Source: Patescibacteria group bacterium (GTDB lineage: Bacteria; Patescibacteriota; Patescibacteriia; SG8-24; DYFX01). From it: 64,000 nucleotides of DNA. A program made the translations under genes and the position numbers. Shown here in pieces: positions 7,345 through 64,000 of this stretch. The stretch covers positions 181,453 to 245,452 of the forward strand of contig CP129476.1 of the NCBI GenBank assembly GCA_030583805.1. The letters run 5' to 3'. The notes beneath the pieces are model-generated. The model was not told where the DNA came from. It worked only from the letters and a program-made list of their open reading frames with translations, and did not search any database. Numbering within the stretch: position 1 is the stretch's first letter; each line of letters starts with the position of its first letter.

Positions 7345-9623
<2,279 letters not shown>

Positions 9624-15553: not shown

Positions 15554-16066
15554 TCAAATTACCGATTTCAACTGCCGAACGGCTTCCGGCAAAAGCGGTG
15601 CCAGGAGGCCGAAGGCTTGGAGGAGCCAGATGCCGACGTTCGAGGCGGAAAGCGCTTCGGCAAAATGCGTGGAGATGGGATAGCGGGCGGCAATATAGAG
15701 CGCGCCGCCGACCACCAGGACGCCTTCGACGAAACCGAGCAGGCCGCCAAGGATCGCATTAAACGTTTTTACGAACGGCACGATCGAGACGAGCTTGAAG
15801 ATCTTTCCGATCAGCCAAAAGACGGCGCCAATCAGGCGGTTCACCAGGATCATGAGCACGAGGAACATGACCATGCGCGCCAGGTTCTCGTTGCCGAAAA
15901 AGATTCCGGCGGCGGCTTCGCCCCAGGCGTCGTAGTAACGGCCGGCGACGAGCACTGAGAGTACCATGCCGATCACGGCGCCGAGCGCGTGCACGAACCC
16001 GAACCACAACCCCGTCAGCACGAAGGCGAAAACGGAAAGGATGAGGATCAGGTCGAGGATGGTCAT
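15554..16066 (-). CDS. cvpA: CvpA-family (colicin V production) membrane protein
   Basis: Four-TM small protein with a CvpA-like N-terminus (MTILDLILILSVFAFVLTGLWFGFVHALG). Confidence 0.7.
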   Translation of the reverse strand: MTILDLILILSVFAFVLTGLWFGFVHALGAVIGMVLSVLVAGRYYDAWGEAAAGIFFGNENLARMVMFLVLMILVNRLIGAVFWLIGKIFKLVSIVPFVKTFNAILGGLLGFVEGVLVVGGALYIAARYPISTHFAEALSASNVGIWLLQAFGLLAPLLPEAVRQLKSVI

Positions 16067-17940
16067 GGCTTCTTCTTGCCGTGCGCCGCTTTCTTGTAAG
16101 CGTCGTGGAGCGTTTTTATGTCCTCGGGCATCATGTCAGCCGGCAGCTTGAAGCCGACTTCAAGCAACGCGTCGCGGAATCCTCCGGGCGTGCCGAACTT
16201 GCCATCCTTCTTCTTTCCGGAAGTTTTCAGGGCTTCGACGATTGCGGGCATCGCCGCGGGTTGCAACGGATTTTCTTTCGCGTCCGCTGCTTGCATTTTC
16301 GCTGTTTCAACTTTCGCCTGCGGCGCGATGTTTTCCGCCTTGGCCGGCGCGGCTTCGAGCGCCTGCTTGAGAAGCGCGGCGCGCGCGGCTTCATCGACGA
16401 CGACTTTCGCCGTTTCCGCCTTGGCGGCCTGCATGTTCGCTTCCTGCAGCTTGTTCGCCAAGATTGGAATCTGCCGCGTTGGCGCTTTTGCGGGCGGCAC
16501 CGGGCGCGTGCGCTCGATCAGCAGAGGCAGGATGGGAGATTCGCGGTCGACGACAATGCCGCCGCGCGCCGCGATTTCATCCCAAGCCTTCGCGCGCTCC
16601 CGCTCCAGCTCTTCCGTCGACATGTTGGCGAGCGACTCTTTCGTTGCAAAACCGTTTTCTTCAAGCAGCTGCCGTACGGTTTCCGTATCGCCGGCCTCGC
16701 TCAACGTCTTGAGAAGCGCTTCCGCGTCTTTCGTGATCTTTTCCCAATTGGGCTCGGCGGAAACGACCTGGGCCTCGGTGACGCTCGGCGGTTTCAGCTT
16801 TTCGGCATCCGCGTTCAATTGCGCGCGTTCTTCCGGAGTGAAGACCTGCTCCTCCTTCTTTTTGAACCCGACATCCTTGGCCGCCGCGTCCATCAAGCGG
16901 TCTCGGCGCTTTGCTTGCTCGGCTTTTTCAGCCGCTTTCTCAGCCTCCGCTTCGGCGACGCCAAGATCGATCGCTTCTTGCAAGTTGCTTTCACCGGTCA
17001 TCTCGGCCGCGAGCGCCGCTTCCCAGGCGCGAATGCCTCCGTCGATTTCGTCCTTCAAAAGCAAACGCGTCTTTTCGAGATCAGTGTCCGAGCTGTGCGC
17101 CAGATCGTCCGGAGTTTGCTTAAGGCGCTGCAGGAGATGCTTGTTCGCCATGAGGTAGGCGCGGAACTGCGTCGAGGACTTGGCTGCGTCGATGGCTTCT
17201 ATGATTGCCTTCCGGTCCTCTTCGGTGACCAGAAACGGCACGTCCGGCGTCGGCGCTTTTTCTGGCTTGGCGCTTTCGGGAACAACTTTCAAATCCGGCG
17301 CCGCTTTCGGTTTCTTGGGCATGTAAGGGCTCTCGATCGTTTCGAGTTCTCCACCCTCGTGAACGCGCATGACGCGGCCGCTCGGAAATTTGCGGAGCGA
17401 GCTGCCGTCGGCGTAGTTGATGCGGAGCTGGCCGATGCGTTCGTCGAACTGCACGTCGCCGATCTGGCCGTATTCGTCGGAATCGCCGATCTTTTCCTTG
17501 TACGCGTACAGCTCCTTCACCATTTTCTGTGCGGAAGTGCCTTTAAGGCGCTCAAACAGCACGTCGGCTTCGTTCTGAAGCTCGAGCTTCTTTTCGGTGC
17601 TTGCGCCTCCCCGCGGGGCCTTTTCCGGGGCACCCGCCGATCCTGCGTTCTCTTGGTACGCTTTTTTGATCGCTTCAAGCTGCGCATCAAGCTTGCTGAT
17701 CTCTTTTTCATTTTGAACAATATTGGCCGCGCGCGAAAAAAAATCTTTCGTCCTGCTCCACCAGGAGGCCGTCGACTGCGAAAAATCGGCAGCCGCCTCT
17801 TCGACTTTGGCGTCCGTCGCTTCTTTGATCGGATTCAGCGCCTCCGGCTTGGAGCTGAGCTTTTCGCGACCTTTCGCGAACTGTTCGGCATCGGCTTCCG
17901 TCAACGACATCTTGTCCGATTTTTCGGCGGGATTGGCCAT
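16063..17940 (-). CDS. large highly charged, low-complexity/coiled-coil protein (625 aa), unknown function
   Basis: K/E/A-rich with long predicted helices. No enzymatic motifs. 4-nt overlap with cvpA. Translationally coupled to the upstream 58-aa ORF. Confidence 0.6.
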   Translation of the reverse strand: MANPAEKSDKMSLTEADAEQFAKGREKLSSKPEALNPIKEATDAKVEEAAADFSQSTASWWSRTKDFFSRAANIVQNEKEISKLDAQLEAIKKAYQENAGSAGAPEKAPRGGASTEKKLELQNEADVLFERLKGTSAQKMVKELYAYKEKIGDSDEYGQIGDVQFDERIGQLRINYADGSSLRKFPSGRVMRVHEGGELETIESPYMPKKPKAAPDLKVVPESAKPEKAPTPDVPFLVTEEDRKAIIEAIDAAKSSTQFRAYLMANKHLLQRLKQTPDDLAHSSDTDLEKTRLLLKDEIDGGIRAWEAALAAEMTGESNLQEAIDLGVAEAEAEKAAEKAEQAKRRDRLMDAAAKDVGFKKKEEQVFTPEERAQLNADAEKLKPPSVTEAQVVSAEPNWEKITKDAEALLKTLSEAGDTETVRQLLEENGFATKESLANMSTEELERERAKAWDEIAARGGIVVDRESPILPLLIERTRPVPPAKAPTRQIPILANKLQEANMQAAKAETAKVVVDEAARAALLKQALEAAPAKAENIAPQAKVETAKMQAADAKENPLQPAAMPAIVEALKTSGKKKDGKFGTPGGFRDALLEVGFKLPADMMPEDIKTLHDAYKKAAHGKKKP

Positions 17941-48806: not shown

Positions 48807-51800
48807 TTACGTGCGGGTCAACGTCTGCGTGTCGGTCGGAAGAATCTTGATAAGTGCCCCGTTCAACCAATCATCCGAGATGTTCGCGTTGTTGACGGAT
48901 ACGTTCGTATCAAGCGTCCACGTGTGCGGAATCAGGCTGTTGTCGGACCAGATCAGGTTGGCGCTGGTGCCGGAGCTGCCGATGACCGGGTCCAGCGGGC
49001 CGGATCCGAGGTTCAGTTCGCCCGACGTGGTCGAAGCGTCGCCAAGCAGCTTCGTGCTGATGGACTCACCGGAAGTATCGGCGCCGCTCACGTTCAACCG
49101 CAACTCGAATCGCTTCGAAGTGCCGGCAGCGATCGTTACTTCGTCGGCGAAGACCACACGGACCGTACAGACGACACTCGTGGCCGTCGAACACGTTGTG
49201 AAGTCGATCTGGCCGGCGTAGTTCGTGCCCTGGCCGTATTCGCGGACGTTGCTGTCGGACAGCGACGTGCCGGTGGCCGAAAGGTCCGTGCCGCCGACGT
49301 TGTTCATGCTGATCTCAAAGGTCAGCTTCTTCAGCGAAACCTGCTCGGCCGCGTCGGCCGCAACCATGAAGTGCGAGACGACCTGCGTACCGCTCGACAA
49401 CGTCGAGGTCGACAGGTTGACCGGAGTGATCGTCATCTTGGTTTTCACGTACGTCTTCTGGCGGCTGGCAAGGTCGTTCGTGGAGCCGGAGGTCGAGATC
49501 GTGCTCGAACCTGCGGACGTGCCGCGCACTTCGAACGTGCTCGTATCGGCAGTGCCGCAACCGCTGCTGTTCTCATTGACGCCGTCGCCATCGCACAGGT
49601 AGACGGTCAGCGGGTAACCCGTTTCGCCGTCGGATTGAATGTCCGAAGCCGGAACAAGCTCGACTTTGACCGTGAGGTTCTTGGAGCTGTCCTTCGGAAC
49701 GACGAACGAGAAGTTCGAGAAGTCGGCGTGTCCGGACGTGTTCGCCGTAATCGGTCCGGCCAGAAGGTTCGAGCCGTCGTAGAGCGATACACCGCGTACC
49801 AAACCGTAGTTCGGGACGCTGATGCGCACCTTCGTAAGCTTGAGATCTTCAGTCTGGGCGGTGAAGCGGTATTTCGCGACGACGGAGGTCGTTCCAGCAA
49901 GAACGAAACCGGCTTCCGATTCCGTGTCATCCGGAGCGAGCGCGTAGGTCATGGTGCCGCTCGTCGAGATGATCATGCTGGCGGATTGTGCCGAACCCGA
50001 CTTCGAGACGGAGTTGCCGTCCATGTCCTGCGCCGTCACGTTCGCGTTGGCGACGGAGAAGGCTACGGTGTCGTTCAGGTTCGCGATCGAACCGGAAAGG
50101 TTACCGACGAGGGCGAGGGTGACCGTCTGACCGGCCGGAATCGTCAAGTTCATGTTGGTGAACTGGAGGAGACCGCCATCAACCGAGGCGCACGACGCCG
50201 TGGACGAGGTCGGACTCTTGGTGTCACCCACCTGCGTGGTGCCATTCATGAGCTTGGCCGTGAGCAAGATGTCGGTGGCGAACTTGTCGGACGAGCCCGT
50301 GTCGGCGTTGTTTTCACAACCCGTACCGAAGTTCGTGTCGTTGTTCGCATCGACGAGCGTTTGGACGGTCATCGAGGTCACCTTGACGTCGGAGCCCTGG
50401 CCAGCCTTGAGGCTGATACCGGCGAGCTCGACGTTCTGGGAGCCCTGGATGAAGGTCTGCGCAACCGGCGTCGAAGCGGCCGAAACCGTGAGCGATGCCG
50501 CACGGACGGTCATCTGGTTTCCGGTAATCGCGGATGAAGGAACGATGTCCGACGTCGAGACGAAGGTCGAGTTGTCGAGGTTGCGGATGTCGGACGACTG
50601 GAACGCAGCGAGGCTGACACGGCTCAGGTTGCCTTCGAGTGCCGCGGCGCTGGCGACGTCCAGGGTCACCTTGAAGGTGCGGGCCTGGCCGGCGTTCAGG
50701 GTGAAGACGTCCGTATAGACGAGGGACTGGGACGTGTCGTTGGCGTCACCGCCCGACGACGAGCTGCTCAAATCCTTCGGACCAGCGATAACAGAGCCCG
50801 ACGAAACGTCGAGAACTTTGATGTCAGTGTAGTTGGCGGTATTCGCGCTGTGGTTCCAAAGACCGCCCGTGTAGTAGTCCGGGCCATCAGAAGAAACCGT
50901 GAGACGCAGGTTGCGGACTTCGACGTTGGACTGCGAGGCGAGGGTGAAGTTCAAGACTTCCTTGTCCTTGCCGTTGGTCGCAATGTCGGTCGCGGCCGGG
51001 CCGTTGAAGGTGATCGTGATCTGACCGCCCTCAAGCGAGAGGTACGAGCAGTCGCCCGAAGTCGAGGTGCAGGAGTCGCCGTCATACGCGGTGCGCGTGA
51101 CGGAGGCACCGAAGCCGAACGTGCGGCCCGTGGCCCAGACATCGGCGTCTTCCTCGACGTAGAGCTTGATGGTGTCAGCAGAGCGGGTACCGCCGCCGAC
51201 ATCGCCCCAAACTTCATACGTGCGGGTGTTGCCCTTTTCGAGGAGGGTGTTGCCCGTGAGGACGAAGGTCACGCGGTCGCGGTCGTCGAGACCGGCGGCC
51301 GAAGCGACTTCCGTACCAGCCGCCTTCAGCTTGAGGTTGGTCAAAGCCGAGCGGGAGATGTTGCCGCTCTGGAAGAGCGTAACGCGCTTGATGTCGAGGT
51401 CCTCGGCGGCGCCAGCGGAGAGCTGGAACTCGGCGAGCTTGACATTCATCTGACCGACCTTCGGGTTCGTGAGCGAACCGGACTTCGCGATCGTGACAGA
51501 ACCGACAGTCGCCGAAGCGAGCGTCATGTTGTTGCCCGTGACCGGGAGACCGGAAGCCGACGAGGAACCGCTCGAAACGGCGGTGACCTGGAAGGCGTTC
51601 ACGTTACCAGCGCCAGCCGTGCTCGACATCGTCGCGGCGACCCACAGGGTGCGAGTCTGACCGGCGGAGAGGGCGAGGTTCAGGCTGTTGAAGGTGACGT
51701 CGTTCGACGAGCTGTTGACGGAACGGCCCGTGGTCAGACGGGAGTTGCCCTCATACAGGTAGACGTTCGAGAAGTCGGTCGAAGCACCGGCGCCCACGCG

Positions 51801-52514
51801 ATGGAGGACGACGGAGTCGACGACGACCGCAGAACCGGTGCCGTTCGAGACGTTGAACTTGACGAAGTTCACGCCCGTCGCGGACTTCGGCACGGTGGCC
51901 GAGGCCGGAGAGTCGGAAGCGAGCGAGACCGAGACGCCAGAGAGGGAGCCAGGGCCGGAGCTCAGGTTCTTGTCCTGGTTCACGGTCTGGGAGCCGCTCA
52001 TTTCGGCGGTCTTGTCGTAGTCGCCGGCCGAGTTCACCGCGTTGCCAACCGTGTAGTTGGTGAAGAACGCGTCGGAGATGTCGTCGATCTGCGTGTTCCA
52101 GTTGGAACCATACAGAGCGGAGGCGACAGCTTCAGAACCGATCGGGCGGAGGACGCCGCCATGCGAGATGGCGTAGACCTTCGGGTCGGACTGAATCTTG
52201 ATCATCTTCACACCCGGGCGATAGGTGACGTTGCCACCGATCTGGATGGAAGCGAGGTCAGCGTCGGAAATCGTCATGACACCCGAGAAGTTCGAGTACC
52301 ACGTGAAGTACGCTTTGTCGTTCGTGAAGACGTAGCGCTTCATGTCGGCGCCGCAGTAGTACACCGCGGAGAGAGAACCTTTGATGAGACTACCGCTCGT
52401 GCAGCCGGCGGCAGAGGCCTTCAAAGGAGCGACGAGGACGGTCGCCATCACGGACCAGAGAATGGTCGAGAGGACGACGCCCAGCGTCGCGGCCTTTTTT
52501 AATGCGTAAGGCAT
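48807..52514 (-). CDS. giant secreted/cell-surface repeat protein (1235 aa): signal peptide, conserved N-terminal domain, then about 9-10 degenerate beta-rich modules of roughly 100 aa
   Basis: Signal peptide MPYALKKAATLGVVLSTILWSVMATVLVAPLKASA. S/T/G/N-rich. Recurring module ending ...xxGQxRTxxVxxDV. The N-domain is homologous to that of the 58993..60333 protein. Confidence 0.7.
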   Translation of the reverse strand: MPYALKKAATLGVVLSTILWSVMATVLVAPLKASAAGCTSGSLIKGSLSAVYYCGADMKRYVFTNDKAYFTWYSNFSGVMTISDADLASIQIGGNVTYRPGVKMIKIQSDPKVYAISHGGVLRPIGSEAVASALYGSNWNTQIDDISDAFFTNYTVGNAVNSAGDYDKTAEMSGSQTVNQDKNLSSGPGSLSGVSVSLASDSPASATVPKSATGVNFVKFNVSNGTGSAVVVDSVVLHRVGAGASTDFSNVYLYEGNSRLTTGRSVNSSSNDVTFNSLNLALSAGQTRTLWVAATMSSTAGAGNVNAFQVTAVSSGSSSASGLPVTGNNMTLASATVGSVTIAKSGSLTNPKVGQMNVKLAEFQLSAGAAEDLDIKRVTLFQSGNISRSALTNLKLKAAGTEVASAAGLDDRDRVTFVLTGNTLLEKGNTRTYEVWGDVGGGTRSADTIKLYVEEDADVWATGRTFGFGASVTRTAYDGDSCTSTSGDCSYLSLEGGQITITFNGPAATDIATNGKDKEVLNFTLASQSNVEVRNLRLTVSSDGPDYYTGGLWNHSANTANYTDIKVLDVSSGSVIAGPKDLSSSSSGGDANDTSQSLVYTDVFTLNAGQARTFKVTLDVASAAALEGNLSRVSLAAFQSSDIRNLDNSTFVSTSDIVPSSAITGNQMTVRAASLTVSAASTPVAQTFIQGSQNVELAGISLKAGQGSDVKVTSMTVQTLVDANNDTNFGTGCENNADTGSSDKFATDILLTAKLMNGTTQVGDTKSPTSSTASCASVDGGLLQFTNMNLTIPAGQTVTLALVGNLSGSIANLNDTVAFSVANANVTAQDMDGNSVSKSGSAQSASMIISTSGTMTYALAPDDTESEAGFVLAGTTSVVAKYRFTAQTEDLKLTKVRISVPNYGLVRGVSLYDGSNLLAGPITANTSGHADFSNFSFVVPKDSSKNLTVKVELVPASDIQSDGETGYPLTVYLCDGDGVNENSSGCGTADTSTFEVRGTSAGSSTISTSGSTNDLASRQKTYVKTKMTITPVNLSTSTLSSGTQVVSHFMVAADAAEQVSLKKLTFEISMNNVGGTDLSATGTSLSDSNVREYGQGTNYAGQIDFTTCSTATSVVCTVRVVFADEVTIAAGTSKRFELRLNVSGADTSGESISTKLLGDASTTSGELNLGSGPLDPVIGSSGTSANLIWSDNSLIPHTWTLDTNVSVNNANISDDWLNGALIKILPTDTQTLTRT

Positions 52515-52622: not shown

Positions 52623-53249
52623 TTACTTCTTCTTTTTTGCGACAGCCTTCTTTTTGGGAGAAGCTGTTTTGACCGCGCTCGGCTTCGGCGCTTCCTTCTT
52701 GACTGCAACCTCTTCCTTCTCCGCCTTAGCGGCGACGGCAGGCTTCAGCATGTTCAGAATCGCGTCGAGCTTGGAGTTCAGCGCCTTAAACTGCTCGGCA
52801 TAGTTTTCGCCTTGCGGGCGCGGCGCGGGCATGGACGCGTTTTTGCGGTCCGGAGCGCCGCCCTTGTCGAAGCAGCCGCGGCAATACACGGGGCGCTCCC
52901 CCGTCGGGCGGAACGGCACCTCGCAGCTGTCGCCGCACTTGTCGCACTCGGTCTGGAACATGCGCTTTTCCGGAGCGCCGAATCCACGGCTCTCGGAACG
53001 CTGTTCAAAACGCATATCTCCGCCGCCCTTGTCTTCCTTCTTGAAGCAATTGCTGCAGTAGATCGGTTTGCGCCCGTTCGGTTTGAACGGAACTTGGCAC
53101 GCGTTGCCGCACTCAGCGCACGTCGCGTTGTGCATCTCCGGTTTCGCGAAACCACGGCTGTCGGAACCCCTGTTCCAAGACTGCCCGCCTCCGAACTTCT
53201 TTCCGCCGCCGTAACCTCCTGATTTGTTGTCGCGATGAGAGTTGTACAT
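52623..53249 (-). CDS. small basic protein with two CxxC-x17-CxxC zinc-ribbon units, Gly/Arg-rich N-terminus and Lys-rich C-terminal tail
   Basis: CAEC-17 aa (...VPFKPNGRKPIY)-CSNC and CDKC-17 aa (...VPFRPTGERPVY)-CRGC. N-terminus GGYGGGKKFGGGQSWNRGSDSRGF. Tail AVKTASPKKKAVAKKKK. Confidence 0.6.
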   Translation of the reverse strand: MYNSHRDNKSGGYGGGKKFGGGQSWNRGSDSRGFAKPEMHNATCAECGNACQVPFKPNGRKPIYCSNCFKKEDKGGGDMRFEQRSESRGFGAPEKRMFQTECDKCGDSCEVPFRPTGERPVYCRGCFDKGGAPDRKNASMPAPRPQGENYAEQFKALNSKLDAILNMLKPAVAAKAEKEEVAVKKEAPKPSAVKTASPKKKAVAKKKK

Positions 53250-60970: not shown

Positions 60971-61235
60971 AAACGAAGTATAGTAAAGCGCAGCAACGAA
61001 CGTCCACCCGACAAGCAAAAACCCACCACGTTCGTGATGGGTCTTTGCTGGCTCCGCAGGTGGGTGGGGTACCCACAGGACTGTATGTGTTAGGGCTTTT
61101 TTGAGAGGCGACGTGGACGATTTTGACGCACGTGGGTCTCAAGGGGTTTGTGGTGAAATCGTACAAATCGAACACGATGCATAAGATCCATAGCAGAATT
61201 CGAATGGGAAAATCTGTACATGGGTAAGGTCGTGA

Positions 61236-62042
61236 TCAGAGCGTGATTCCCGGGTTCATCTCCTTCAGCTTCACCACCATCTCCTCCATGCCAAGCAAGT
61301 GGAATAGGTGATTCGCTGAGGCAGTGACTACCGTGTCTACGAGTCCTGTGACCTTCTCATTATTACGCTGTGCCATGGCAATCCAGTGCGCCTTGGCCTC
61401 AGCGCTTGCATTCCGTTCCTCCTCCTCTTGTTCTCTATGAAATTCCGCAACTCGATCAGGATTCGCATTCGGGAATATACTTCCAAAGATTTCCCTGCCC
61501 TTGCGAGCGTTCTCTGCTCTGAGAGCGGCGCCATCCATGAACCTTGGACCGTGGTGGACGTGCGGGTTTCTGTGCTCTGAAGTTCCCTCAAATGATGAGC
61601 CGATTTCTTGTTTCAACGCACGGTAGTATGCGCTCACATCATCACTGTTCGTTGCGACTGCACTCACGTCCTTCCTTGCATGGTCGACGTACGTTTCAAG
61701 CTTGTTCTTCAGCGTGTCCATGTCCTGTAAATACGCGTGGACGTGATGGTTGAACGATTCATCAAAGGCAATGCCCGACGAAATATCCGGATAGAAGGAC
61801 TCGAAGAATACTGGGTATCGAAGCACTTTATCCCTTGCGTAGCCAATGCTGCTGAGCATCTCCTGGTACTTCCTAAGCAGCACATCGTCTATGGCGTTTT
61901 GGTCGTACTCGGGCTGGAAGGCTTCGAGAAGCATTTCCGGTTCCTTGCATACAAAAAGTAGCGCGCGGATCTGCCCGAGCTTGTCTACAGGAGCATCAGC
62001 ACCCCCTTTAGTGTCTTTGTCCTCAATGTTTATATTAGACAT
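61236..62042 (-). CDS. hypothetical His-rich protein (268 aa), last gene of the island operon
   Basis: Start at the ATG at 62040-62042 (MSNINIEDKDTKGG). His clusters NHHVHAY and RNPHVHHGP. No family recognised. Confidence 0.45.
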   Translation of the reverse strand: MSNINIEDKDTKGGADAPVDKLGQIRALLFVCKEPEMLLEAFQPEYDQNAIDDVLLRKYQEMLSSIGYARDKVLRYPVFFESFYPDISSGIAFDESFNHHVHAYLQDMDTLKNKLETYVDHARKDVSAVATNSDDVSAYYRALKQEIGSSFEGTSEHRNPHVHHGPRFMDGAALRAENARKGREIFGSIFPNANPDRVAEFHREQEEEERNASAEAKAHWIAMAQRNNEKVTGLVDTVVTASANHLFHLLGMEEMVVKLKEMNPGITL

Positions 62043-62043
62043 A

Positions 62044-62053
62044 CGGTAGTGAG
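62044..62053. repeat. C10 homopolymer (G10 on the coding strand), 1 nt upstream of the 61236..62042 start codon
   Basis: Read directly: gagCCCCCCCCCCactctg. On the minus strand the context is TGA CCAAAGGCAGAGT GGGGGGGGGG C ATG. Confidence 0.9.
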
Positions 62054-62076
62054 CCCCCCCCCCACTCTGCCTTTGG

Positions 62077-62817
62077 TCATTTCCTAAGCATTTGTTCCGT
62101 TTCCTGCCTCTTGTACGGCTCGAACCGGCGAAGGTGGTCGATGACGGTACGAACATCCCCTTTCGCCTCGGCTTCCACGTGTGAGTACGTCCATGTTTCG
62201 CTATTCAGTCTTCCAGTGATGGCGTTAAGTACCCGAGCCAAAACATCGAGAAGGTCCCTGATTTCGTCTACGGTCAACTCCGGCGGCTGCGGCTTCTCGA
62301 CATCATCATGTGCCAGCCACTTGTCGCGATAGGTTTCCAGTCGCGCCAAAGTATCCGCATGCCTGTCGAGCATCTTCTTTATATCAACAAGCTCGCCGTA
62401 GTTCATGGCCTTGTATTTGACGACTAGCTCATCCAAGAATTCGCGTGAGCGATTCTGGTTGTATTCCTCAAACGCCTCGACCGTAAGGTTCTTCATGTTT
62501 CCCTCGGTAAAGCCGAGGACTTTGTTGATCGACAAAGCCTGCTTCGACGTGTCGAACATCTTGGCAAGTTCAAGCAGACAGTTCGTACGGAAAGCCTTCT
62601 CGGCCAAAATGAAAAAATGCCTGTATCCGCTCATCGTCTTTACGTTTGCTTCGGCCTCCTCCTGACCGAGGACATTCGGCGCCCTAGCTTCGCGCAGAGC
62701 GTCGAACAAATAGAAGAAAGAGAGGGCGTGATAGTAGCGCCGGTGCATGGTCTTGGCAAAATCCATCAACGTTTCAAATTCTCGCTTTTGCGGTTTTAGT
62801 CCTGAGGTATCCGCCAT
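62077..62817 (-). CDS. hypothetical alpha-helical protein with R-x5-H motif (possible HEPN-type domain)
   Basis: 246 aa. YRDKWLAHDD fits the Rx4-6H HEPN signature. Start ATG lies 1 nt after the stop of the upstream membrane-protein gene. Confidence 0.45.
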   Translation of the reverse strand: MADTSGLKPQKREFETLMDFAKTMHRRYYHALSFFYLFDALREARAPNVLGQEEAEANVKTMSGYRHFFILAEKAFRTNCLLELAKMFDTSKQALSINKVLGFTEGNMKNLTVEAFEEYNQNRSREFLDELVVKYKAMNYGELVDIKKMLDRHADTLARLETYRDKWLAHDDVEKPQPPELTVDEIRDLLDVLARVLNAITGRLNSETWTYSHVEAEAKGDVRTVIDHLRRFEPYKRQETEQMLRK

Positions 62818-62818
62818 A

Positions 62819-63523
62819 TTATTCTCCGATATACGACATCGCTATTAATACCGCACCGAATGCGAAAGATGCGGTGGTCAAGATCGGCATCGCGTAACCG
62901 AGAATAGCGGAGCCGATCTTATCGCGCAGTGTCTCTTTTCCAATGTTCTCTTCTGAAAGGATGGACATTTTTTCCTTCAGGTAGGCATCAAAAGAGCGAC
63001 CTTGGTCGTGTGTTTCCTTCAGTTGCTTCAGGATTCTTGTTTGCGCGTCCTTTTGCCATCTCACCACAGCTCCAAATCGTCGATTGTCGCGAAGATGAAT
63101 GAACAAGATGTCGAGAACACCCAGAACAACAGAGGTGACGAGCAGGAGCAAGCCGATCGTCGGTGACTTGTCCGCATCCGGATGTTGACCGAGCCCCGAT
63201 GCGGTGAAGCCGATGATGGTAAGGGAGAATCCGACGAGAGTCGTGAGGAAGGATCGAAACGAACTGACACCTTGTAGAAGAAGGGACTTGTTGTCCGACA
63301 AGACTTTTTCGAACACCTCCTTCACGTGTTTCTCTTCCTTGGAGAATCTCCACGTTTCCTTGGATATTTCCTCCGTCATTTTCTCTAGGTACAGGTCGGA
63401 CTTGCTTTCCAGGATGGATAACAGCTTCAGGATGGGCGGCGATGACAAAAACGCGATGAGCTCGTCCTTCCATGAGGGCTCCTGCATGTCCATTTGCTGC
63501 TCGTTTTCTGTCGGGTCCGTCAT
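62819..63523 (-). CDS. hypothetical membrane protein (N-terminal about 90-aa soluble domain plus 3 TM helices)
   Basis: Start at the ATG at 63521-63523 (MTDPTENEQQ), 4 nt after the stop of the HTH gene. TM helices FLTTLVGFSLTIIGFTASGL, IGLLLLVTSVVLGVLDILFI, IGSAILGYAMPILTTASFAFGAVLIAMSYI. Confidence 0.45.
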   Translation of the reverse strand: MTDPTENEQQMDMQEPSWKDELIAFLSSPPILKLLSILESKSDLYLEKMTEEISKETWRFSKEEKHVKEVFEKVLSDNKSLLLQGVSSFRSFLTTLVGFSLTIIGFTASGLGQHPDADKSPTIGLLLLVTSVVLGVLDILFIHLRDNRRFGAVVRWQKDAQTRILKQLKETHDQGRSFDAYLKEKMSILSEENIGKETLRDKIGSAILGYAMPILTTASFAFGAVLIAMSYIGE

Positions 63524-63527
63524 AACA

Positions 63528-63752
63528 CTATGTTCTTGGGTGCGCCTTATGTGAGGCAACGTAAAACCGATCCTCGATTGGCATGACGCGCTGACGTTCA
63601 AGATAGTCCAGTATTTCTGCCTCGTCGAAACGGAGGTGGCGGCCGATGCGATAAAACGGGAGGATCCGGCTCTGGACCATCCTATAGATCGTCGGATTCG
63701 AGACGATGAACATCTCGGCCACATCATCGATTGTCAGTAGTTTCTTTGACAT
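63528..63752 (-). CDS. excisionase-family (MerR-like) helix-turn-helix DNA-binding protein
   Basis: Start at the ATG at 63750-63752. MSKKLLTIDDVAEMFIVSNPTIYRMVQSRILPFYRIGRHLRFDEAEILDYL matches the Xis/AlpA-type HTH pattern (LLTxxEvAexLxVSxxTIYRxxxxGxLPxxRIGRxxRF). Confidence 0.6.
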   Translation of the reverse strand: MSKKLLTIDDVAEMFIVSNPTIYRMVQSRILPFYRIGRHLRFDEAEILDYLERQRVMPIEDRFYVASHKAHPRT

Positions 63753-63907: not shown

Positions 63908-64000
63908 TACTTCTTTTCCGCAGCCTTCTGCTTATCCGCCATGTAGCAATCAAGGGCGAGGTGCGCGAGCTCGGTAAGGTCGTTCACGACTTCCGCCGCC
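63908..64000 (-). CDS. C-terminal end of an unidentified native-GC gene (partial, continues beyond window end)
   Basis: Minus-strand frame reads ...AAEVVNDLTELAHLALDCYMADKQKAAEKK then stop. A weak hairpin with a T-run follows. Too short to name. Confidence 0.3.

Follow-up and report, generated by a model that had tools for sequence, protein, structure and literature searches.

Does an uninterrupted run of ten guanines, placed between a predicted abortive-infection gene and the gene that follows it, act as a phase-variation switch in a member of the Patescibacteria? The question arises near the end of the stretch of DNA analysed here (64,000 nt, hereafter the window), for which the original prediction held that a run of 10 C, equivalent to G10 on the coding strand, separates a HEPN-like gene from the gene at 61236..62042, and that slippage within this run could switch translation of the second gene on or off. 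The uninterrupted run is plainly present in the sequence between these two genes, but its placement needs correction. Specifically, the tract lies at 62054..62063 rather than at 62044..62053 (the earlier figures were 10 nt too low), the G run stops 11 nt before the ATG and not 1 nt before it, and the distance from the stop codon of the HEPN-like gene is 13 nt instead of 23 nt. Read on the minus strand, the junction thus proceeds from the TGA that ends gene B (62079..62077) through CCAAAGGCAGAGT, the G10 itself (GGGGGGGGGG) and CTCACTACCGT to the ATG of gene A (62042). We class the tract as a homopolymeric G-rich tract of the ribosome-binding site (RBS) region rather than as a demonstrated phase-variation switch. 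The last four minus-strand genes of the window form a tight operon, D-C-B-A, in which gene A is last (Table 1).

Table 1. Features of the D-C-B-A operon and of the junction that holds the G tract, in window coordinates.
Feature	Coordinates	Strand	Remarks
Gene D, 74 aa, HTH_17 / excisionase-family DNA-binding protein	63528..63752	(-)	first gene of the operon; 4 nt to gene C
Gene C, 234 aa, predicted membrane protein	62819..63523	(-)	hydrophobic C-terminal half; 1 nt before the gene B ATG
Gene B, 246 aa, HEPN_AbiU2, predicted abortive-infection RNase	62077..62817	(-)	34 nt to gene A, containing the G10
13-nt stretch CCAAAGGCAGAGT, from the TGA of the HEPN_AbiU2 gene to the G run	62064..62076	(-)	
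G10 homopolymer (C10 on the + strand)	62054..62063	(-)	within the 34-nt spacer between genes B and A; read from the sequence
11-nt spacer CTCACTACCGT, from the G run to the gene A ATG	62043..62053	(-)	near the coordinates of the tract in the original prediction
Gene A, 268 aa, WKZ29356.1, QY323_01340, uncharacterised all-helical protein	61236..62042	(-)	directly downstream of the tract
Conserved non-coding block, 105 nt	61049..61153	(-)	follows gene A; shares 80% identity with L001 10840..10944

The tract stands alone in the sequence surrounding it. Apart from the C10, the longest C run listed in the window is 6 nt and the longest G run 5 nt, and no second G or C run of at least 7 nt is found in the 64-kb window or in a further 6.6 kb of the same genome; likewise, none occurs in about 150 kb of other loci that we examined. 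The length of the run is reproduced in a second, independent assembly of this strain, the k-mer-based Logan assembly of run SRR24881069 (locus L003): for 11,542 nt it matches the window at 100% identity, and it has G10 at its positions 8570..8579, in a contig that is unbroken through the tract. Because this separate assembly likewise has G10, an assembler artefact is unlikely. A G10 run is intrinsically prone to slippage; in Campylobacter jejuni, the mutation rates of G/C tracts range from 1e-4 to 1.6e-3 per division (PMC8355987). At ten uninterrupted Gs, the run is within the length, about 8 or more G or C, at which the homopolymers of contingency loci are hypermutable.

The closest relative is represented by a 961-nt sequence (L002; JGI 3300045502) of which 959 nt can be aligned with the window; DNA identity is 85.4%, with 137 mismatches and a single gap. 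That sole gap, of 4 nt, falls at the G tract: where the window reads GAGT GGGGGGGGGGC TCACTACCGTATG, L002 reads GAGT AAGGGGA TCACTACCGTATG. The comparison with related genomes that the original prediction had proposed therefore reveals G4 within AAGGGGA at this site, as opposed to G10 here. Ten of the 11 spacer nucleotides (TCACTACCGT) are unchanged in L002, in which AAGGGGA lies equally far from the ATG, and upstream of it the TGA of gene B is replaced by CGA, such that the HEPN open reading frame extends to a TAA abutting the GGGG. The site has thus altered in length in one lineage over evolutionary time, as would be expected where slippage is frequent; a single comparator of 85% identity speaks to evolutionary lability, which is distinct from phase variation on ecological time-scales. 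A G-rich element at this position is common to the window and L002, and its retention by L002 as AAGGGGA at the same place suggests that it is maintained. At a more distant locus (L001), neither a G run nor a Shine–Dalgarno (SD) sequence precedes the homologue of gene A, and the upstream gene is a different one. When three public contig collections (metagenome, genome and viral) were scanned with the flank pattern GGCAGAGT-N1-30-CACTACCGTATG, they yielded only chance matches or none, and no further copy of the junction.

How might the length of the run matter to gene A? The original prediction regarded the tract as the sole SD-like element ahead of this gene, and it is indeed the only strongly anti-SD-complementary element there. 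The further idea that slippage would alter the spacing between SD and start does not hold, as the ATG-proximal Gs stay 11 nt from the ATG and only the distal end of the run changes. Duplexes were modelled against a canonical anti-SD tail (assumed, the 16S 3′ end of this genome lying outside the window), and the predicted pairing energies are -12.6 kcal/mol for G8, -13.0 for G9, -14.3 for G10 and -14.9 for G11, compared with -12.5 kcal/mol for the reference UAAGGAGGU paired with the same assumed tail. The predicted accessibility of the RBS, taken as the mean unpaired probability over -20..+13 in partition-function folding of the junction, is 0.45, 0.43 and 0.41 for G9, G10 and G11, and slides from 0.49 to 0.37 between G4 and G14. 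Hence an on/off response is predicted by neither the duplex model nor the folding model. What survives of the proposed switch is a slippage-prone and evolutionarily labile tract; the mechanism attached to it does not survive.

It is informative to view these predictions in light of how genes in this region appear to start. Essentially no anti-SD complementarity is found for 18 of the 20 called genes around the locus, among which gene A, at -10.7 kcal/mol, is an extreme outlier, and the A-family genes of six other loci (L001, L023 to L028) have AT-rich leaders that lack an SD. Because the neighbours and the A-family genes elsewhere do without one, initiation here probably does not require an SD. 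Clear SDs are few in the window and lie 5 to 7 nt from their start codons, compared with 11 nt at gene A; this spacing, which is equally long in L002, also exceeds the usual SD range of about 5 to 9 nt. The start codon assignment itself is consistent across relatives, as the ATG at 62042 is common to all three close homologues, including those at 84% and 69% identity.

Several other roles for the run were considered and set aside. A 306-aa open reading frame (61236..62156) passes through the tract and would make it a frame-shifter, but the added part runs into the 3′ end of gene B, its frame is not kept in L002, and the homologues all start at the ATG at 62042. Slippage that fuses genes B and A is likewise rejected, as the gene B stop codon sits 13 nt upstream of the run. 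The tract is not a promoter spacer: no -35/-10 consensus occurs on its flanks, and the spacer between genes B and A holds no sigma-70-like promoter. Nor is it part of a structured RNA or a terminator, given that RNA structure at the junction is not significant (fold z = 0.09), that the spacer has no terminator-like site and that no Rfam family is matched anywhere in the window. A search for repeats or att-like sequences around the tract returned nothing relevant. The run therefore lies in none of the positions typical of a contingency locus, that is, within an open reading frame, between -35 and -10 elements, or between an SD and its start codon.

The explanation that we consider best, and to which we give moderate confidence, is that G10 represents a lineage-specific expansion of a G-rich SD-like element that is prone to slippage and that at most tunes expression. 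Gene A would be co-transcribed with D, C and B, and ribosomes that end at the gene B stop codon, or that load afresh, could anneal to the G run, in whichever register, through their anti-SD; translation of gene A would then begin at the ATG 11 nt past the last G. The tract may thus serve, or may once have served, as a ribosome landing site for gene A. Because the ATG-proximal edge of the homopolymer stays put, changes of 1 to 2 nt would leave initiation essentially intact, and length changes would at most tune the level of gene A through SD strength or local folding. We infer SD function, co-transcription and length-insensitive expression of gene A, the last of these from thermodynamic models of initiation. 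The close packing of D, C and B, with gaps of 4 nt and 1 nt, is in keeping with this proposal, and it is plausible that a single unusual homopolymer has an ordinary role as a G-rich ribosome-binding element. Several points weigh against it: the 11 nt to the ATG exceed the spacing of the few clear SDs, the run may play no part in initiation, given its SD-poor neighbours, the anti-SD used in the modelling is an assumed one, and ten uninterrupted Gs go well beyond what an SD requires, an excess for which this explanation does not account.

A neutral explanation is that slippage and drift lengthened a G-rich spacer to G10 in this lineage and that the run has no translational or regulatory role, with gene A initiating independently of an SD as most genes of the genome do. 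We consider this somewhat unlikely, although the lack of anti-SD complementarity in 18 of 20 neighbouring genes, the SD-free leaders of the A family and a spacing that is poor for an SD are all as it would predict. Chance also leaves some room for it: dinucleotide-preserving shuffles yield a mean of 0.07 matches per 64-kb window, with at least one match in 4 of 100 shuffles, and across 1.17 Mb of genome a single run of this kind could arise by chance, which under the dinucleotide model is not very improbable. Against this stand the strong avoidance of such runs in the region, in which all others are no longer than 6 nt, and a higher-order Markov expectation of only 0.001 to 0.007 per strand base. 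The recognisable AAGGGGA that L002 retains at the site, with the maintenance that it suggests, also argues against drift.

Any proposal that the tract is a regulatory switch must be considered in light of the operon and island in which it is found. By its sequence, gene B is a clear member of the HEPN_AbiU2 family: it matches Pfam PF18734 with E = 2.1e-19 and 70.2 bits (cut-off 26.8), and R164 and H170 of its RDKWLAH segment, which conform to the R-x4-6-H motif of HEPN proteins, are invariant across 23 homologues. NCBI and Logan call this gene as 229 aa from an ATG at 62766; a start at 62817, a single base past the gene C stop codon, which gives 246 aa, is more likely because F14, also invariant in 23 homologues, lies upstream of 62766. 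Gene D matches Pfam HTH_17 (E = 3.3e-16), TIGR01764 (E = 4.9e-14) and PHROG excisionase families, and has a MAD1-like match that is under the cut-off; gene C has no family match in profile searches that included PHROG. The operon occupies the edge of a prophage-like island of low G+C, on a 1,167,441-bp contig from a MAG that bears the annotation 'Patescibacteria group bacterium'. Specifically, G+C falls from about 0.59 to 0.50-0.52 in the last 3.5 kb of the window and remains at 0.42-0.55 over the 6.6 kb beyond its end at 64000 (L003 1..6633), where a ParB_N-N6_N4 methyltransferase, a second methyltransferase, a small-terminase-subunit-like gene and two PHROG families without known function are encoded. 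It is because this low-GC stretch carries methyltransferases, a terminase-like gene and PHROG families that we describe the island as prophage-like, and L003 1..6633 is probably a prophage or a prophage remnant. Elsewhere in the window, two large minus-strand open reading frames (48807..52514, 1235 aa; 16063..17940, 625 aa) have gene-like GC3 and no Pfam match at E <= 1e-5.

Such settings are typical of phase variation, and intergenic-type contingency tracts are known from other bacteria, among them the poly-G in the uspA1 5′-UTR of Moraxella catarrhalis and the poly-G tracts of the Treponema pallidum tpr genes. Phage defence can be phase-variable as well, as in the Pgl system of Streptomyces coelicolor, in which a G tract lies in pglX, and in type I and type III restriction-modification genes that contain simple sequence repeats. 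These systems resemble the present one in having a slippage-prone run at an anti-phage locus; their tracts are intragenic and switch the reading frame, in contrast to the intergenic G10. Were the tract a true contingency locus, frequent slippage among G9, G10 and G11 would shift the amount of protein A relative to the HEPN_AbiU2 protein. The shift could come about through a stronger or weaker SD, through ribosomes trapped on an SD that binds too tightly, or through effects on mRNA folding or on transcription across the G run; the outcome would be heritable, reversible subpopulations that differ in defence state. We judge this unlikely.

Nonetheless, this contingency explanation has features of the locus to recommend it. 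The run is of hypermutable length, no other long G/C run occurs across about 71 kb of this genome, the site holds the only indel between orthologous loci of 85% identity, and a defence operon on a mobile island is a typical setting for phase variation. Intergenic tracts of Campylobacter, Neisseria and Moraxella are likewise G/C runs of 8-13 nt upstream of genes involved in host-parasite conflict (PMC8355987), and G10 falls within the range of lengths for which they undergo 1e-4 to 1e-3 indels per division (PMC8355987). Another close parallel is espR of Mycobacterium tuberculosis, which also has a poly-G in an untranslated leader, where recurrent indels are documented in thousands of isolates and where a +1 G has been proposed to alter both access to the RBS and translation (PMC11898584), illustrating that a homopolymer indel in a 5′-UTR can alter translation through folding. 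In addition, MutS and MutL are missing from some CPR lineages (PMC8406219). The case is made mainly by analogy with the Campylobacter tracts, the espR 5′-UTR tract and CPR lineages that lack MutS and MutL.

These analogies are imperfect in ways that matter. Known contingency tracts are mostly found in open reading frames or between -35 and -10 elements, where one unit shifts the frame or the spacing; G10 lies in neither, and is instead itself the SD-like element, such that the critical distance from the proximal Gs to the ATG is unaffected by slippage. The espR tract lies 144 nt upstream and acts via a hairpin (PMC11898584), whereas the G10 junction has no significant predicted structure and its modelled accessibility hardly moves. 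Likewise, the modelled SD pairing is almost flat around G10, and most genes here initiate without an SD. Genomes that use such a strategy usually have many tracts, but here a single tract is seen in ~71 kb of an uncultured Patescibacteria bacterium. Two assemblies of the strain both have G10, with the Logan contig unbroken at that point.

If length variation were shown, homopolymer phase variation would extend to the CPR bacteria, which are ultra-small and uncultured, and to an Abi module carried by a prophage, and a contingency switch could allow a clonal, host-dependent population to hedge between armed and disarmed abortive-infection states. In the literature that we searched, no link is drawn between Patescibacteria and phase variation, the two being co-mentioned in a single paper and only incidentally, and for this reason a demonstrated switch would be new for the group. 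We hesitate to go so far: that the tract is the first simple-sequence contingency switch in the Patescibacteria (CPR), stochastically resetting the ratio of A to HEPN at the junction between a swappable effector cassette (membrane protein plus HEPN_AbiU2) and gene A, strikes us as quite improbable.

Long-read platforms err mainly at homopolymers, and a MAG contig of 1.17 Mb that is closed, as in this case, suggests that long reads were used. Even so, a length error, whether a sequencing or assembly mistake that conceals a shorter or longer tract or an artefact of poly-G chemistry, is very improbable indeed: the k-mer assembly of SRR24881069 also has G10 inside 11.5 kb of complete identity, the run is internal with both flanks homologous to L002, and no reading frame hinges on the length of the tract, the genes looking intact.

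The protein whose start lies beyond the tract belongs to a family that we can now delimit. Only two close homologues of gene A were recovered from collections of 5.8e9 and 1.8e9 proteins (P0002 at 84% and P0003 at 69% identity), and an exhaustive HMMER search defines a family of 84 cluster representatives that are mostly 235 to 265 aa long; E is 1e-10 or better for 66. In an alignment of 52 members, Y76 and H100 are invariant and R158-x-P-H161-x-H163 is nearly so. Gene A has no match in Pfam, NCBIfam, PADLOC or PHROG; its AF2 model is all-helical (pLDDT 92), and Foldseek searches with this model gave nothing significant in PDB or BFVD. The RxPHxH motif is compatible with the R-x4-6-H of HEPN proteins, and HEPN hits to the family are sub-threshold, scattered and confined to single members. 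The profiles of the gene A and AbiU2 families show no similarity to each other. A HEPN family named 'Bxe_C0808' is reported from operons with AbiU2 (PMC3710099).

Across loci, the partners of both families change. Gene B resembles the AbiU/HEPN_AbiU2 modules described previously (PMC3710099), with an R-x5-H motif and a location among restriction-modification and mobile-element genes. In other CPR genomes (L014-L022), HEPN_AbiU2 proteins of ~60% identity are always followed, after a 2-nt gap, by a 209-aa protein without a family, in contrast to the arrangement here, in which a family-A protein follows the G10-containing spacer; the 209-aa protein was compared with A and C as a possible relative and is unrelated to either. 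Those HEPN_AbiU2 loci adjoin LexA_DNA_bind-Peptidase_S24-N6_N4_Mtase fusions together with BglII-like or MutH-like nucleases, with a second methyltransferase (MethyltransfD12) in place of the nuclease at L018. Family-A proteins elsewhere come after a TIR protein or a membrane protein: the gene is downstream of a TIR_2 protein at L023 and, within a restriction-modification and SNF2 island, of a 168-aa membrane protein at L001, whereas at L025 the protein encoded upstream has a zinc ribbon and matches a helicase family (AAA_12) only faintly, and a serine recombinase lies downstream. A useful by-product of the analysis is a defined, uncharacterised family that recurs downstream of HEPN_AbiU2, TIR and membrane protein genes. 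The wider set of neighbours of this family includes HEPN_AbiU2, TIR_2, TerB_N, Imm_superinfect and recombinase genes.

The L001 locus shares part of this operon. At L001 9217..9441, an uncalled 74-aa open reading frame closely resembles gene D, with DNA that is 76% identical over the covering block, and downstream of the A homologue the 105-nt non-coding block recurs (Table 1) with near-identical minus-strand stretches CAAACCCCTTGAGACCCACGTGCGTCA, AAAAAGCCCTAACACATAC and CTGCGGAGCCA; this block may be a terminator, a small RNA or the boundary of an element. Between D and A, the window has gene C and the HEPN_AbiU2 gene, and L001 has the unrelated 168-aa membrane protein. Because L001 shares D, A and the 3′ block and differs between them, we describe a conserved D...A frame with an exchangeable middle cassette, and this operon frame, whose cassette swaps between relatives, is a second useful by-product. 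The G10 sits exactly at the junction of the cassette with gene A.

As a minor observation on translation in this genome, most genes of the window have no SD, and in several genes that come first in their operons a TATACT- or TAGAAT-like box precedes the ATG by only ~8 to 25 nt, for example upstream of the minus-strand starts at 53249, 55688, 31972 and 36478. The placement of these boxes so near the ATG suggests very short leaders or leaderless mRNAs.
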